DNA from: Fidelibacterota bacterium | GTDB taxonomy: Bacteria > Fidelibacterota > Marinisomatia > Marinisomatales > S15-B10 | Reading direction: 5' to 3' | Length of the DNA stretch: 12,047 nucleotides | NCBI GenBank assembly: GCA_046861655.1 | Contig: JBHIAI010000051.1 | Span: 1 to 12,047 of the forward strand | In this document: positions 1 through 5,186 of the stretch, piece by piece | How the letters are laid out: each line of letters opens with the position of its first letter | Numbering within the stretch: position 1 is the first letter of the stretch | Notes under the pieces: model-generated | Databases searched by the model: none | What the model saw: the letters and a program-made list of their open reading frames with translations, nothing else | What the model was told of the DNA's origin: nothing | Program-made: the position numbers and the translations under genes

Positions 1-52
1 CGCCGGGGCGGGATAACAGCCACCCGTCCCGACCCTTCGGGACTACGCCGGA
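1..52 (-). pseudogene. tRNA-Asn(GTT)-like remnant, copy 2, truncated by the window edge
   Basis: Identical to the first 52 nt of copy 1 (162->111); anticodon-position GTT at 17-15. Confidence 0.65.
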
Positions 53-97
53 ATTATCAAGAATCTGTTCCCAGGACGGCTACCTTCTGAACGAACA

Positions 98-162
98 CGA
101 ACCCCTATCCCGCCGGGGCGGGATAACAGCCACCCGTCCCGACCCTTCGGGACTACGCCGGA
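98..162 (-). pseudogene. tRNA-Asn(GTT)-like remnant, copy 1, with palindrome-substituted arms and no 3' acceptor strand
   Basis: Minus strand reads TCCGGCG-TA-GTCCCGAAGGGTCGGGAC-G-GGTGG-CT-GTT-A-TCCCGCCCCGGCGGGAT-AGGGG-TTCG. This follows tRNA register: 7-nt acceptor strand, U8 A9, D-arm-sized hairpin, 5-nt anticodon stem, CT+GTT+A, then GGTTCG. The expected 3' T-stem and CGCCGGA are absent. Confidence 0.7.
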
Positions 163-186
163 ATTGTGGTGTCAAAAAGCGGGGAG

Positions 187-215
187 AATATATTAAGAAC
201 CTTTGAGAAGGGCAA
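187..215 (-). promoter_or_regulatory. sigma70-type promoter (-35 TTGCCC, 17-nt spacer, -10 TATATT) with a GC-rich discriminator
   Basis: Minus strand: TTGCCC (215-210), ttctcaaaggttcttaa (17 nt), TATATT (192-187), then CTCCCCGC. The -10 box lies about 25 nt upstream of the tRNA-like 5' end at 162. Confidence 0.7.
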
Positions 216-220
216 AGTCC

Positions 221-2065
221 CTACATCTCTTTTTCCGCGATCAAAACCTTTCCCTTGCTAAACAGGCTGCGCTGCAATTGTTCCCGGTTAATCATGACGA
301 CCCCGTCCTCGTCGTGGCTTTCACCGAAGACCGAGTGGATGGACTTCAATCCACCCAGCCATTTTCGTTTGTCGCACAGGTACACGAGATCACCCACTTC
401 CGCCGCCATGGCCTCCATATCGTTCTTTGACAGTCTCACCACATCCTCAGTCCCTTCTTCCACCCTCCAGTGAACCTCCACTTTCTTGCCTTCCCTGTCA
501 TTGGGTTTACCCCCCTTGAACAATTCCCGGGCCCGGCTGATATCAAAAACGGTCAGTCCTTTGATGTCTTTGTCTGGGTCGTGTCTTGAGAAAAGACTCA
601 CTGTCACCCCCACCAGAGCGCACACGAAGATATTGTAGAGTGCGCCGATGTAGATGAAGGGCTTGTCGGTCTGCATCTCAATGCCGTGGGAAAAAGGGAT
701 GATCAGCTGAGGAAAGACCTGTCCCAGTATCATGAGGGCTGCGCCTGCGGTGAAGGTTGCCACTACCGCTGTGGATGTAAACCGCCGCCAGAACACCCCC
801 AGAAAGACGGCCACCACCAGAGGAGGTGTGAAGGTGGAATGAAACCAGCCATGGGCTTCGTAGATCGTCCCGAACGAGTTGAAAACAGGGACCAGGGCGA
901 CACTCACGGCAGTGACGCCTACTGAAACCCACCGGGACACCTCCAGGAAATGGTGGTCCGAACGCTCCTTCTTGATCATGGGTTTGTAGATGTCGTTCAC
1001 GAATACGGCAGCCGAGGCATTCACCAGGGTATCGACGGTGGACATGAGGGCCGCACTCAAGGCGGCAATGATGAAACCGAAAACCCCGGGTTTTGCCACC
1101 AGGTTGGTGACTACCACAAACACATCGTTGGGATCCATCGCCGGATCGATCCGTCCCGGGAACACCTCCAGAACGGCCCGTCCGATCCAGCCCGCATTGG
1201 AGACCACGATGGCCGAGATCGGCAGGACGAGCAGTACGTTAAACGTAGCCGCCTTTCTCCCCTCGTTCACGCTCCGGGCGGCCATAAACCGCATGATCAA
1301 TCCCTGGTTCAAGAACAGAAATCCCACACTCCCTGCAATGCCATCCTGCCAGAAAATCCCCACAAAATTGAAATCGGGAGGCCGGTTGAAATTGGCCAGC
1401 GGCAGTTTGGCTTCAGTGGGAAGAGCATTCCAGAAAACGTCTATTCCACCCAGATACGTAAGCCCTAGGAAAAACAACAGTAGACCGGCAAATAACAGAA
1501 TAAATCCCTGGAGCAGATCGGTGAAAATCACAGACGTCTGTCCCCCGAAGTGCATGTAGACAGCGGTCAGGACGGCCACAACGATCACCGTTCCCATCAG
1601 GGGCAGTCCCAGGATCTTGTATAAAGCCGTAGCCAGAGTCAGGAATCCGATGGCGATGTAGCCGATCATGTACAGAAGAATCATGAGGGTGGCGAGTCTG
1701 CGGGCGGTGGGATTGAACCTGCGCTCGAAGTATTCCGGGATGGACCTAACCCGGGTATAGTAGATGATGGGCAGCCACCCGAACATGAAAAATGGCATGA
1801 AAAACCAATCATTCATGTAGGTCATGGTGGAGGAGAAACCGTACTGGAAAGCCTTTGAAGAATACTTTATGAAGCTGTGGGAGCCCACCCCTGTGGCCAC
1901 GATGGATATGGTGATGAGCCACCAGGCAAACCGCCGGCCCCCGAAGAAGAAGTCGGAGGTGGTTTTTGCATACCGGCCAAAATAGCTGCCGAATAGAAGG
2001 ATGATGACAAAATAGGTGACGATGATCACCTGGTCCAGACCTGTGCCCACGATCGATTCCGACAT
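221..2065 (-). CDS. Sodium:solute symporter (SSS/SLC5 family), 614 aa, with a soluble C-terminal extension
   Basis: SSS motifs DFFFGGR, SIPEYFERRF, Y..GGQTSVIFTDLLQ, QGLIMRFMAA and AALMSTVDT; many transmembrane segments. Start placed at ATG 2065 (MSESIV), 4 nt after the upstream stop. Confidence 0.93.
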   Translation of the reverse strand: MSESIVGTGLDQVIIVTYFVIILLFGSYFGRYAKTTSDFFFGGRRFAWWLITISIVATGVGSHSFIKYSSKAFQYGFSSTMTYMNDWFFMPFFMFGWLPIIYYTRVRSIPEYFERRFNPTARRLATLMILLYMIGYIAIGFLTLATALYKILGLPLMGTVIVVAVLTAVYMHFGGQTSVIFTDLLQGFILLFAGLLLFFLGLTYLGGIDVFWNALPTEAKLPLANFNRPPDFNFVGIFWQDGIAGSVGFLFLNQGLIMRFMAARSVNEGRKAATFNVLLVLPISAIVVSNAGWIGRAVLEVFPGRIDPAMDPNDVFVVVTNLVAKPGVFGFIIAALSAALMSTVDTLVNASAAVFVNDIYKPMIKKERSDHHFLEVSRWVSVGVTAVSVALVPVFNSFGTIYEAHGWFHSTFTPPLVVAVFLGVFWRRFTSTAVVATFTAGAALMILGQVFPQLIIPFSHGIEMQTDKPFIYIGALYNIFVCALVGVTVSLFSRHDPDKDIKGLTVFDISRARELFKGGKPNDREGKKVEVHWRVEEGTEDVVRLSKNDMEAMAAEVGDLVYLCDKRKWLGGLKSIHSVFGESHDEDGVVMINREQLQRSLFSKGKVLIAEKEM

Positions 2066-2069
2066 GGGA

Positions 2070-2279
2070 CTACCCGTTAAGGGCCCCCAGGATGACGGCG
2101 GCATGCATGAAAGCATACCACACGAAACCCACGAGCAGAATGACCAGCCACTTTCGATCTTTGCGCAGCTTCAGATCCAGGGAGTGGTGTTTGAGGATCA
2201 GGACCATGCCCACGACAAAGAACAAACCGCCCACTCCGTACAGATAGAGGTAGGGAAGCCAGGTTCGAAAGAAACCCAT
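2070..2279 (-). CDS. Small two-TM membrane protein (69 aa), candidate SSS partner subunit
   Basis: Two hydrophobic segments separated by the basic loop KHHSLDLKLRKDRK; fills the gap between the HIT and SSS genes with 2-nt and 4-nt spacers. Confidence 0.8.
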   Translation of the reverse strand: MGFFRTWLPYLYLYGVGGLFFVVGMVLILKHHSLDLKLRKDRKWLVILLVGFVWYAFMHAAVILGALNG

Positions 2280-2805: not shown

Positions 2806-4893
2806 TCAACCGCTGTCGTTTTTTCTTTTGCTGGCTTCAACGATTTTCTGTTCCAGCTCCCTGGGCAGCTCCTCATAGTGGCTGAACTTCTCAGTATGGG
2901 TGCTTCTTCCCCCGGTCAACGAGCGCAACGAGGTGGAATAACGGTACAGGTTGGCCTGGGGAATAAGGGCCCGGATGATCTGGACGTCCCCTTCCGAATC
3001 CATCCCCAGAATCTTGCCCCTTCTGCCCGATATGTCACCCATGACATCCCCCATATACTCCTCGGGAACTCTCACCTCGATCTCATAGATAGGTTCCAGC
3101 AGGGAAGGCTGGGCCGCCAGAAACGATTCCTTGAACGCTTCCTTTCCGGCAATCTGGAAAGCGATATCTTTTGAATCCACAGGGTGCTGCTTACCGTCGT
3201 AGAAGTTCGCTTTCACATCCACCACCTTATACCCGGCGAGGATTCCTTCCTCACAGGCCGACTTGACCCCCTTCTCAACGGAGGGGACGAAAACCCGGTC
3301 CACACTCTGCCCCACTAATGAATTCTCGAATTCCACTCCGGACCCTCTGGGGAGAGGTTCAACTGTCATCCACACTTCAGCAAACTGGCCCGCACCCCCG
3401 GTTTGCTTCTTGTGGCGGTATTTCGACTCCCCGCGGGACCTGACGGTCTCCCGGTACGGAACCCGGGGTTCCACCAGGTCAACGTCAACGTTGAACTTCC
3501 GCTTCAGCCGTTCGGTTACGATCTCCAGTTGAAGTTCCCCCTGGCCGGAAATAATGGTCTGTTTCAGTTCAGGGTCCACGCGAAACAGGAAGGTGGGGTC
3601 TTCCTCGTGGAGGGTGGCCAGTCCGGTGGCAATCTTCTCCTCGTCTCCCTTTGACTTGGTGACCACCGCTTCATGGATATTGGGCAAAGGAAAGTCAATT
3701 TTTGGCAGTTCGATGCTCAAGCGCCTGTCGCACAGCGTATCGCCCGTATGGGTATTCTTGAGTTTCACCACGGCACCCATGTCGCCTGAAATCAGGGAGC
3801 CCGTCTCTCTGCGGCTCTTTCCATTCATGACAAACAGCTGGCCCAGACGTTCGGAGGTTTGCCGTGAGGTATTCTTGAGATCCATTCCACTTTTCACCGA
3901 TCCTGAGTAGACCCGGAAGAACGAAAGTTCCCCCACGTGCGGTTCGCTTACTGTCTTGAACACGAACAAGCTCGCCGGGGCTTCGGTGGCCGTGGGAATC
4001 TCTTCCTCCTCATCGGTCCCCGCCTTGAGGGCCCGGGTCACTTCCAGATCCGCCGGGGAAGGACAATACTTGGCGATGAGTTCCATCAACCGTCGAACGC
4101 CGATATTGCCCCCGGCAGCTGTGCAGACCAGGGGAATGAGGGAACCGCTTCTTATGGCGTCGTGGAGCCCGGCCCGGAGTTCATCTTCAGAAAGACTGCC
4201 CTGATCAAAGAACTTCTCCAAAAGCACGTCATCCGACTCGGCGATGTCTTCGATCAGTTCATCGTGAAGGGTCTCCACCCTGTCAGCCCAGTCCTCCGGG
4301 ACTTCCTCCTCCCTGTAGGACCCGCTCCCATCGGTCTCATGGGTGAGGACCTTTTTTCTGAGCACGTCTACGATCCGGTTAAAGCCCGGACCCGGATTCA
4401 AGGGGAGCTGAAAGGGTACAATCCTCCGTGAGTACCGCTCCCGGAGGGTTTCGACCACGGAATCAAAATGGCAGTTTTCCTTATCGAGCATGGTAACGGC
4501 CACCAGTCTGGGCAGCCCGTAATCCCGGGCGAATCGCCAGGCAACGTCCGTTCCTGCCTCAGGGCCCGTGACGCCGTGAACCGCGGTCACGGCAAAATCG
4601 GACACCCGGAGGGCGCTCTTGACTTCCCCGGAAAAATCGAGGAATCCGGGGGCGTCGAGAATATTGAATTTCATATCCATCCACTGGCAGGTAAGCAAAG
4701 TGGAGTTTATGGAAATCTGTCTTTCGACCTCATCGTCATGGTAATCCGAAATCGTGGTTCCATCCTCAATCCTGCCAATCCTGTTTACCTGCCCCGCATT
4801 GTACAGGAAAGCTTCAGAGAGGATCGTCTTTCCCGACGTTCCGTGACCGATAAGGGAGAAATTGCGAATATGGTGAGGGTCAACAGATGTCAT
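2806..4893 (-). CDS. fusA2: Elongation factor G paralog (EF-G2 / EF-G-like), 695 aa
   Basis: IRNFSLIGHGTSGKT, ERQISI, DAPGF, GQGELQLE, PRVPYRET, KKQTGGAGQFAEV, HPVDS, LLEPI, DVMGDISGRRGKI and LRSLTGG. Full five-domain EF-G length with non-canonical G motifs. Confidence 0.95.
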   Translation of the reverse strand: MTSVDPHHIRNFSLIGHGTSGKTILSEAFLYNAGQVNRIGRIEDGTTISDYHDDEVERQISINSTLLTCQWMDMKFNILDAPGFLDFSGEVKSALRVSDFAVTAVHGVTGPEAGTDVAWRFARDYGLPRLVAVTMLDKENCHFDSVVETLRERYSRRIVPFQLPLNPGPGFNRIVDVLRKKVLTHETDGSGSYREEEVPEDWADRVETLHDELIEDIAESDDVLLEKFFDQGSLSEDELRAGLHDAIRSGSLIPLVCTAAGGNIGVRRLMELIAKYCPSPADLEVTRALKAGTDEEEEIPTATEAPASLFVFKTVSEPHVGELSFFRVYSGSVKSGMDLKNTSRQTSERLGQLFVMNGKSRRETGSLISGDMGAVVKLKNTHTGDTLCDRRLSIELPKIDFPLPNIHEAVVTKSKGDEEKIATGLATLHEEDPTFLFRVDPELKQTIISGQGELQLEIVTERLKRKFNVDVDLVEPRVPYRETVRSRGESKYRHKKQTGGAGQFAEVWMTVEPLPRGSGVEFENSLVGQSVDRVFVPSVEKGVKSACEEGILAGYKVVDVKANFYDGKQHPVDSKDIAFQIAGKEAFKESFLAAQPSLLEPIYEIEVRVPEEYMGDVMGDISGRRGKILGMDSEGDVQIIRALIPQANLYRYSTSLRSLTGGRSTHTEKFSHYEELPRELEQKIVEASKRKNDSG

Positions 4894-5186
4894 GAAGAAT
4901 CCTTTCTCACCCCCTGCGGTACTCCCTTGGATACTCTGGAAGTCTTGTCGATAAACTCTCTGAGTGCCGGTACAAGGTACCGACCCGTGATATCAAGATT
5001 CCCGAAGGTTTCACCCAGGATCCGCAGGCGAGACTCCAGGGGTTTGGTTTGATTGATAACGATGAATTCTTCGTCCCGGACCTTGCAATACCCGCCTCTA
5101 AAATCACCTCTTCCTTCAACCAGAACGATTCCCATCTGTTCCGCCAGCTGCTCAAAATGAGAAAAAAGCTCCTCCGGTTTCATCAC
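4890..5186 (-). CDS. Conserved-looking hypothetical protein, 97-98 aa (start GTG 5186 or ATG 5183)
   Basis: Overlaps the upstream stop (GTGATG) and the fusA2 start (ATGA); globular composition (GDFRGGYC, IVIN, YLVPALREFI). Confidence 0.8.
   Translation of the reverse strand: MMKPEELFSHFEQLAEQMGIVLVEGRGDFRGGYCKVRDEEFIVINQTKPLESRLRILGETFGNLDITGRYLVPALREFIDKTSRVSKGVPQGVRKDSS

Follow-up and report, generated by a model that had tools for sequence, protein, structure and literature searches.

Hairpin-plugged partial copies of tRNA-Asn at a Fidelibacterota contig end, probable scars of a tRNA-nested GIY-YIG/hairpin element

Introduction

Tandem repeats linked to tRNA genes, such as those behind E. 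coli tyrT, and the att duplications of integrases copy the 3' end of a tRNA gene; tRNA genes are common integration sites, and the T-loop is a known crossover region. REP/BIME sequences are short palindromes, many of them outside genes, that are tied to a small enzyme that processes single-stranded DNA.

The closest described systems both involve GIY-YIG nucleases. In the Ssn system, SsnA of Neisseria meningitidis (cd10448) is associated with NTS/SRM hairpin repeats; a small, single-domain GIY-YIG gene is flanked by hairpin repeats that are also scattered genome-wide, SsnA cuts single-stranded DNA beside its hairpin, and nuclease and repeat co-vary, an arrangement that its authors liken to an insertion sequence, with REP/BIME and their RAYT (IS200/IS605-like HUH) transposases discussed as a comparison (PMC11893778). 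SegB is a free-standing GIY-YIG homing endonuclease of T4/T6 phages that adjoins tRNA genes and drives tandem amplification of tRNA-bearing segments (PMC13096335).

Here, we describe a repeat array at the end of a contig from a Fidelibacterota bacterium, in a stretch of 12,047 nt (the window). The tRNA-nested GIY-YIG/hairpin element to which we relate it works most like Ssn/SRM; it resembles both Ssn/SRM and SegB, yet departs from each in one defining respect. As in Ssn, the nuclease genes of relatives encode small single-domain GIY-YIG proteins, and the NTS core shares TCCCGC..GCGGGA with the second hairpin of the window (by eye). The flanks here, in contrast, are pieces of tRNA genes, with one tRNA type per nuclease clade, and the SRM pattern has no match in window positions 1-200 and 30 scattered matches in the genome; in the main text of the Ssn paper, the term tRNA occurs 0 times (PMC11893778). 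The likeness to SegB lies in a GIY-YIG nuclease next to tRNA genes, but SegB is phage-borne and has no preference for a tRNA type (PMC13096335), whereas the nucleases here are chromosomal and sorted by tRNA type, have no phage or viral-contig relatives in our searches, and leave partial, hairpin-plugged copies. The enzyme here is GIY-YIG, in contrast to the HUH enzymes of REP/RAYT, and the hairpins take the place of arms in the tRNA copies. The tyrT-type repeats and att duplications share short tandem units with a piece of the neighboring tRNA gene, but here the units derive from the 5' part, have some of its arms replaced, are situated downstream of the promoter and ahead of the gene, and have a nuclease gene nearby in relatives. 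In a literature search that covered subscription journals thinly, we found no published description of an arrangement of tRNA pieces, GIY-YIG gene, and hairpins.

Results

The left end of the window carries an exact 55-nt direct repeat (1-55 and 111-165) with a 110-nt period, as stated by the initial annotation and confirmed by a repeat listing of the window, in which it is the longest family and the sole one at 100% identity. Because position 1 is the first base of the contig (C92 of the source MAG, G000), the array is truncated by the assembly and not merely by the window. The array and its surroundings comprise the following features.

221..2116, minus strand: sodium:solute symporter gene, outside the element (PF00474, E 1.9e-50)
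187..215, minus strand: predicted sigma-70-like promoter (TTGCCC-17-TATATT) of the tRNA-Asn transcription unit, then a G+C-rich stretch
98..162, minus strand: unit 1, which begins at +1 of tRNA-Asn(GTT), covers its 5' part as far as the T-loop, and is disabled by two hairpins (alignment to the tRNA-Asn of G003)
136..153, minus strand: GTCCCGA-N4-TCGGGAC, which folds as a hairpin, in place of the D arm
124..135, minus strand: 5' strand of the anticodon stem plus the loop as far as position 37; 127-125 is the GTT anticodon (sequence match)
108..123, minus strand: hairpin TCCCGC-N4-GCGGGA that substitutes for the 3' anticodon stem and variable loop (found at this position in 34 of 37 loci selected by protein)
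56..97, minus strand: 42-nt between-segment, part of the repeated 110-nt unit (contigs of public runs X1, X2, and X3)
1..55, minus strand: unit 2, identical to 111-165, broken off by the contig end within the second hairpin (repeat listing and public contigs)

Read on the minus strand, the unit has the 5' acceptor strand TCCGGCG (162-156), TA, the first hairpin (153-136), GGGTGG-CT-GTT-A (135-124), the second hairpin (123-108), and the start of the T arm up to GGTTCG (106-98). The tRNA-Asn origin proposed by the initial annotation, which was to fall if no tRNA-Asn of this or related genomes aligned outside the palindromes, holds: an intact tRNA-Asn gene from the same family (G003) matches the unit outside the hairpins in exact blocks of 10, 13, and 8 nt, the 124..135 segment is identical in the tRNA-Asn genes of G003, G006, and G010, and the unit occupies a syntenic tRNA-Asn site; we therefore class it as a tRNA-Asn-derived copy on both its alignment and its place. 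It lacks the RF00005 cloverleaf with both acceptor strands, since it ends in the T-loop and cannot build a tRNA acceptor stem; ARAGORN calls no tRNA in the window and Rfam none in 1-1500 at E<=10, whereas the intact G003 gene scores 71 bits. The units are thus hairpin-plugged partial copies of a tRNA-Asn gene, stacked ahead of the working gene. The replacement of the D arm by a TCCCGA hairpin is also seen at two other loci (L148 and L155), and the TCCCGC hairpin at 108..123 is the signature of the Asn-linked GIY-YIG clade described below.

The promoter-like site (215-187) is the single one detected in 1-400 (shuffle mean, 0.1), and its minus-strand position upholds the earlier placement of the array within a transcription unit; at the equivalent position, relatives keep a TAAATT-CGCC-like box. 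The symporter gene is a synteny marker just upstream of tRNA-Asn across the order, with relatives present in 134 of its 151 genomes. We took the downstream DNA at 80 of the best-scoring symporter places, with seven top rows omitted and two genomes represented twice, and an intact tRNA-Asn is present in 71 of these 80 stretches; eight of the nine without one stop at a contig edge. Exact partial copies of at least 11 nt occur at 10 of the 71 intact loci and hairpin traces at 8 more, and 53 are clean, with neither, such that clean and occupied alleles both exist among relatives. Decoration of the site (10 + 8 decorated versus 53 clean) is therefore patchy, a pattern that a mobile or unstable element would be predicted to leave, and in some relatives' tRNA-Asn loci the copies decay. 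None of the 36 ARAGORN calls in G000 is a tRNA-Asn, and the working gene is therefore expected to the left of position 1.

Among the 11 window proteins scanned, there is no integrase, transposase, or RT, and the remaining scanned genes are housekeeping genes or have no assigned family; the DNA left of position 1 is absent from the MAG. Two small minus-strand ORFs (2070-2279, 69 aa; 4890-5186, 98 aa) match no Pfam family and share an operon with EF-G-like, HIT, and nucleotidyltransferase genes. These gene contents bear on a derivation of the units from att sites of an integrase-driven island or prophage at tRNA-Asn, a reading consistent with 5' pieces that stop near the T-loop. We regard it as very improbable, as the window genes scanned are housekeeping genes or unassigned, the copies are situated upstream of the tRNA gene and downstream of its promoter, the complete loci read in relatives have just a tiny GIY-YIG gene between the tRNA pieces, and att duplication leaves the hairpin-replaced arms unexplained.

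To extend the locus beyond the contig edge, we compared window positions 1-700 with contigs of four public DNA runs (X1-X4) from one study, possibly the source samples. The junction from unit to between-segment is assembled in three runs (X1-X3), which speaks against misassembly, the outcome in read data that the initial annotation had named as fatal to its reading. In X1 and X2, positions 43-72 are joined leftward to a normal D arm, and in X2 a normal anticodon arm likewise follows the 42-nt segment; the segment thus leads into a normal tRNA-Asn in both runs, of which the 5' half is seen. In X3, one contig loops the full 110 nt, with a joint from 110 back to 1. The depth of the unit contig is ~2.1-2.2x that of the flank in each of X1-X3, and because depth is not copy number, we describe the array just as short, with roughly 2-3 units. 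An assembly artefact at the contig end could be suspected from the edge position, and the confirming runs come from one study and perhaps from the source samples; with a junction specific to unit 2 assembled in three runs, unit depth at ~2x flank in each, and an equal architecture inside long contigs of other genomes, we find this explanation scarcely credible.

These runs also show signs of strain variation at the array, in that window position 81 differs (T>C) between X1 and X2-X4 and a depth-3 contig of X1 (window 153-182 area), possibly a second allele, has a normal D arm immediately behind the leader. X1-X3 also contain a further contig that agrees with 98-134 apart from one difference and continues to a tRNA 3' end with CCA; the letters ahead of the CCA-ended piece (30 letters per side visible) read by eye as MKGDFDWKR-stop, which resembles the GEFDWKM/GEFDWEK C-terminal ends of the Asn nuclease clade. 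No contig in X1-X3 bridges this GIY-like contig to the window, its sequence is absent from the MAG, and it could come from another organism; G000 has none of the normal D arm, the tRNA 3' end, or the GIY-like end. A candidate continuation of the locus on contig C180 (a 13-nt match) proved unrelated.

The initial annotation left two readings of the 42-nt segment, a unique spacer or part of a full unit. Its occurrence ahead of normal tRNA-Asn, together with the 110-to-1 joint, makes it part of the 110-nt unit, and the unique spacer is rejected, as the segment repeats with the unit and precedes both the unit and the normal tRNA. The array does not have the constant repeats and unique spacers of a CRISPR-like array, since relatives' tandem arrays are whole-unit copies with identical or nearly identical between-segments (109/110, 103/103, and 87/88). 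Origin as a phage-derived spacer, for which comparison of 56-97 with phages had been proposed, found no support (no phage match better than E 8). Other candidates fared no better: as a remnant of an Asn-clade GIY-YIG gene, its best local score is equalled by 106 of 1000 shuffles and as a second-clade remnant by 277 of 1000, with no nhmmer match to GIY-YIG genes, and we set the remnant reading aside as unproven regardless of an 11-nt match to the RPW-coding region; descent from an ancestral tRNA leader is no better founded, given that the score against 76 leaders is equalled by 206 of 300 shuffles.

These results do not support the repeat-spacer RNA array put forward in the initial annotation, with the 42-nt segment part of the unit and followed by a normal tRNA-Asn. 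A broader version, a functional RNA array in which tRNA-like leaders are cut to small RNAs or act as decoys for anticodon nucleases and the like, gains from the position of the units directly behind the tRNA promoter-like site, the retained GTT loop, and the recurrence of 5' units at tRNA-Asn in several phyla. Nonetheless, we judge it improbable: units share their between-segment and lack an acceptor stem, the unit folds as RNA no better than shuffles (z -0.34), copies decay in relatives, and the locus is clean in 53 of 71.

We scanned 185,579 genomes for a 17-nt pattern (anticodon arm plus hairpin start) and found 77 loci, three of which duplicate loci of the symporter-relative set; ARAGORN calls a tRNA-Asn at 28 of the 77, and the named loci are mostly in Calditrichota, KSB1, and Neomarinimicrobiota/Fidelibacterota. 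The recurring layout is a promoter, a hairpin-plugged 5' piece, a short segment, an intact tRNA-Asn, a GIY-YIG gene, and a hairpin-plugged 3' piece. Several loci show parts of the series, the first three as close analogues of the array described here: L130 has two gene-less, double-hairpin 5' units followed by tRNA-Asn and the start of a GIY-YIG gene; L169 has three units at a 110-nt period (identity, 109/110 and 71/71 letters); L148 has a double-hairpin unit, tRNA, GIY-YIG gene, and 3' piece; in G033 and G018, the gene is preceded by the 5' piece and followed by another tRNA copy; and in L134, L102, and L136, gene and tRNA piece are duplicated jointly as a single unit. Of the annotation's overall reading, then, the tRNA-Asn origin and the footprint of a tRNA-targeting element are supported, the latter through small GIY-YIG genes at the same layout in relatives, and the repeat-spacer array is not. 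The adjacent small nuclease that it recommended looking for is a GIY-YIG gene beside tRNA-Asn in relatives; there is none within the window, nor in the MAG at the tRNA-Asn locus. Repeated 5' portions, which it considered unusual, are common at the tRNA-Asn site in relatives.

The copies match the tRNA of their own host in 54 of 65 features (24 loci), compared with a permutation mean of 23.9 and maximum of 41 (0/10,000 permutations reach 54), and this resemblance indicates that the local gene is their source or that copies and gene are held similar to each other. At 6 of 13 loci, the hairpin loops on the two sides of the tRNA, upstream and downstream, have the same sequence (permutation mean, 1.1), although several of these loci are close kin, and kin are not independent in any of the permutation tests. 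The 5' pieces break off within the T arm, ~8-13 nt from its start, and the 3' pieces begin 10-19 nt ahead of the hairpin; the ends thus fall in narrow zones but vary by several bases, and no single precise cut or att site is indicated. The exact double-hairpin 25-mer has no match in JGI metagenomes, a set from which records of the source genome were perhaps left out.

The GIY-YIG proteins of relatives are single-domain proteins of 83-90 aa (PF01541) with invariant Y, G, R, H, and E residues of the GIY-YIG site in a 14-row alignment. All of their Atlas neighbors are GIY-YIG, none of four proteins has an NCBIfam family, and the best match to a solved structure, UPF0213 protein 1ywl, is weak (E 5.5e-4). 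A metagenome scan by a protein alignment built from Asn-linked proteins yielded 44 loci; in the best 37, an Asn-plus-hairpin piece is close to the gene in 34, and in 6 of the other 7 there is a tRNA-Met piece. At E<=1e-10, the profile has matches, often more than one, in 63 of the order's 151 genomes, and the 30 profile loci read lie beside tRNAs for Gly, Ala, Pro, Met, or Asn, except that one has no label.

The nuclease clades sort by tRNA type. In an 80-row tree (87 alignment columns, with tRNA labels from our own patterns and an Asn-derived query), all 36 Asn-labelled rows fall inside one 40-row clade (99/98). Separate supported clades unite the 8 Met rows, the 7 Ala rows, the 5 rows of a second Asn type, and 12 of the 13 Gly rows, but the 5 Pro rows are not grouped in this way. 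The type and position of the hairpin co-vary with nuclease clade and tRNA type. The second Asn clade, unlike the first, has a TCCG(G/C)C-type hairpin over the anticodon arm; it occurs at L262 (G001:C275), L013 (G003:C17), L100, and L033, with the same-genus G001 carrying a second-clade GIY-YIG gene between tRNA-Asn 3' pieces and the same-family G003 also occupied. We note that both Asn clades are present at one locus (L138), where two elements may compete for one tRNA. With the Asn-clade query, we found no nuclease relatives in 50,697 phage records or viral contigs; 72,556 plasmid records likewise hold none.

The hairpin is not confined to tRNA loci. G000 has 78 TCCCG(A/C)..CGGGA hairpins (TCCCGA, 32; TCCCGC, 46), against a median of 2 for 150 permuted arms, and 27 of the 78 are in long ORFs, which make up 84% of the genome. 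Three such hairpins lie at variable positions of the RNase P RNA (G000:C24:5005-5396, L259; 270 bits), one in an FMN riboswitch loop (C86, L260), and one in the long arm of tRNA-Ser(CGA) (C196), and the hairpin thus seems to be tolerated inside working RNAs. Its presence in RNase P RNA, the FMN riboswitch, and many intergenic sites implies that it may spread apart from the tRNA cassette.

This distribution raises the question as to whether the hairpins are independent, REP-like repeats, with tRNA copies made by ordinary slippage and GIY-YIG genes that merely accumulate beside tRNAs. The excess of hairpins in G000 (78 versus 2), their insertion in RNase P RNA, the FMN riboswitch, and the tRNA-Ser arm, and the many decorated loci without a nuclease gene are all in keeping with such a view. 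It is nevertheless unlikely, if less so than the other alternatives, given the co-variation of nuclease clade and tRNA type with both type and position of the hairpin, the different hairpin at a different place in the second Asn clade, and the joint duplication of gene and tRNA piece in L134, L102, and L136.

Discussion

We conclude that the units are probably gene-less tandem scars of a small, tRNA-nested, selfish element that would consist of a gene for a single-domain GIY-YIG nuclease of ~88 aa and a GC-rich TCCCG..CGGGA hairpin. The window shows the 5' margin of the tRNA-Asn locus of this genome, which the element has probably remodelled. The units, their place in a tRNA operon, and the normal 5' half of tRNA-Asn after the last 42-nt segment are observed; the full layout is likely to be promoter, 2-3 gene-less units, intact tRNA-Asn, GIY-YIG gene, and a CCA-ended, hairpin-plugged 3' part. 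The units themselves are probably passengers in the pre-tRNA leader without a function of their own, and the window holds only the gene-less scar of the system.

By analogy with SsnA and SegB, nicking, duplication by repair, and spread can be pictured as follows. The nuclease would nick the tRNA gene or the hairpin while the DNA is single-stranded and folded, and recombinational repair could then duplicate part of the tRNA locus, with selection retaining one working tRNA. Slippage or unequal exchange between the copies might subsequently produce short tandem arrays, from which the gene may be missing.

A wider generalization, which we offer tentatively and hold to be somewhat doubtful, is an undescribed class of minimal selfish elements, devoid of transposase and integrase, in which each clade of ~85-aa GIY-YIG nuclease addresses one tRNA type, leaves a clade-specific hairpin mark on its own tRNA copies, and both spreads and amplifies by cut and repair. 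Under this generalization, the target would be recognized as folded single-stranded DNA or as RNA, one working tRNA would be kept, and the hairpins within RNase P RNA and riboswitches would stem from the same element family; nature would thus offer a collection of tiny nucleases, each directed to a particular tRNA type. If the relationships described here are correct, thousands of genes annotated as 'hypothetical GIY-YIG' or 'excinuclease C' gain a testable substrate, the adjoining tRNA type plus hairpin, and the Ssn idea of a tiny nuclease with a hairpin is extended to tRNA genes with a predicted clade-to-tRNA code. Moreover, assemblies are interrupted by such arrays where a tRNA gene lies, with the consequence that MAGs lack tRNAs.

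Hairpin-plugged partial copies of other tRNA genes are found in G000, including tRNA-Glu(TTC) (C27:12319-12489), Glu(CTC) (C116:4698-4860), Pro(GGG) (C58:26408-26580), Met(CAT) (C143:7888-8100), and probably Phe (C101:6070-6231), with the Met copies in tandem and running off the contig end; a tRNA-Gln 12-mer was rejected as probably due to chance (374 nt away, in coding DNA). At a further contig end of G000 (L178, C181:5700-6006), an 84-aa GIY-YIG frame with a long tree branch is followed by a hairpin-plugged tRNA 3' piece, Val-like by eye, and tRNA-Val(TAC) is absent from the ARAGORN list of G000.

Elsewhere, four or five tandem 103-nt units of the 3' type lie behind tRNA-Asn at L026 (G016:C76), with identities of 103, 103, and 100 of 103 letters for three of the steps from unit to unit and no nuclease gene detected in 4 kb. 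At L092 (G079:C27), a tRNA-Asn copy breaks at the anticodon into a long non-tRNA sequence truncated by the contig end, an insert that by eye looks like the start of a group I intron. G000 also has GTCA..GCGA-type hairpins with a TCCCG hairpin in the loop (C15:4380-4430, C186:7870-7905, and C8:18335-18380), which we take to be reminiscent of SRM-like repeats.
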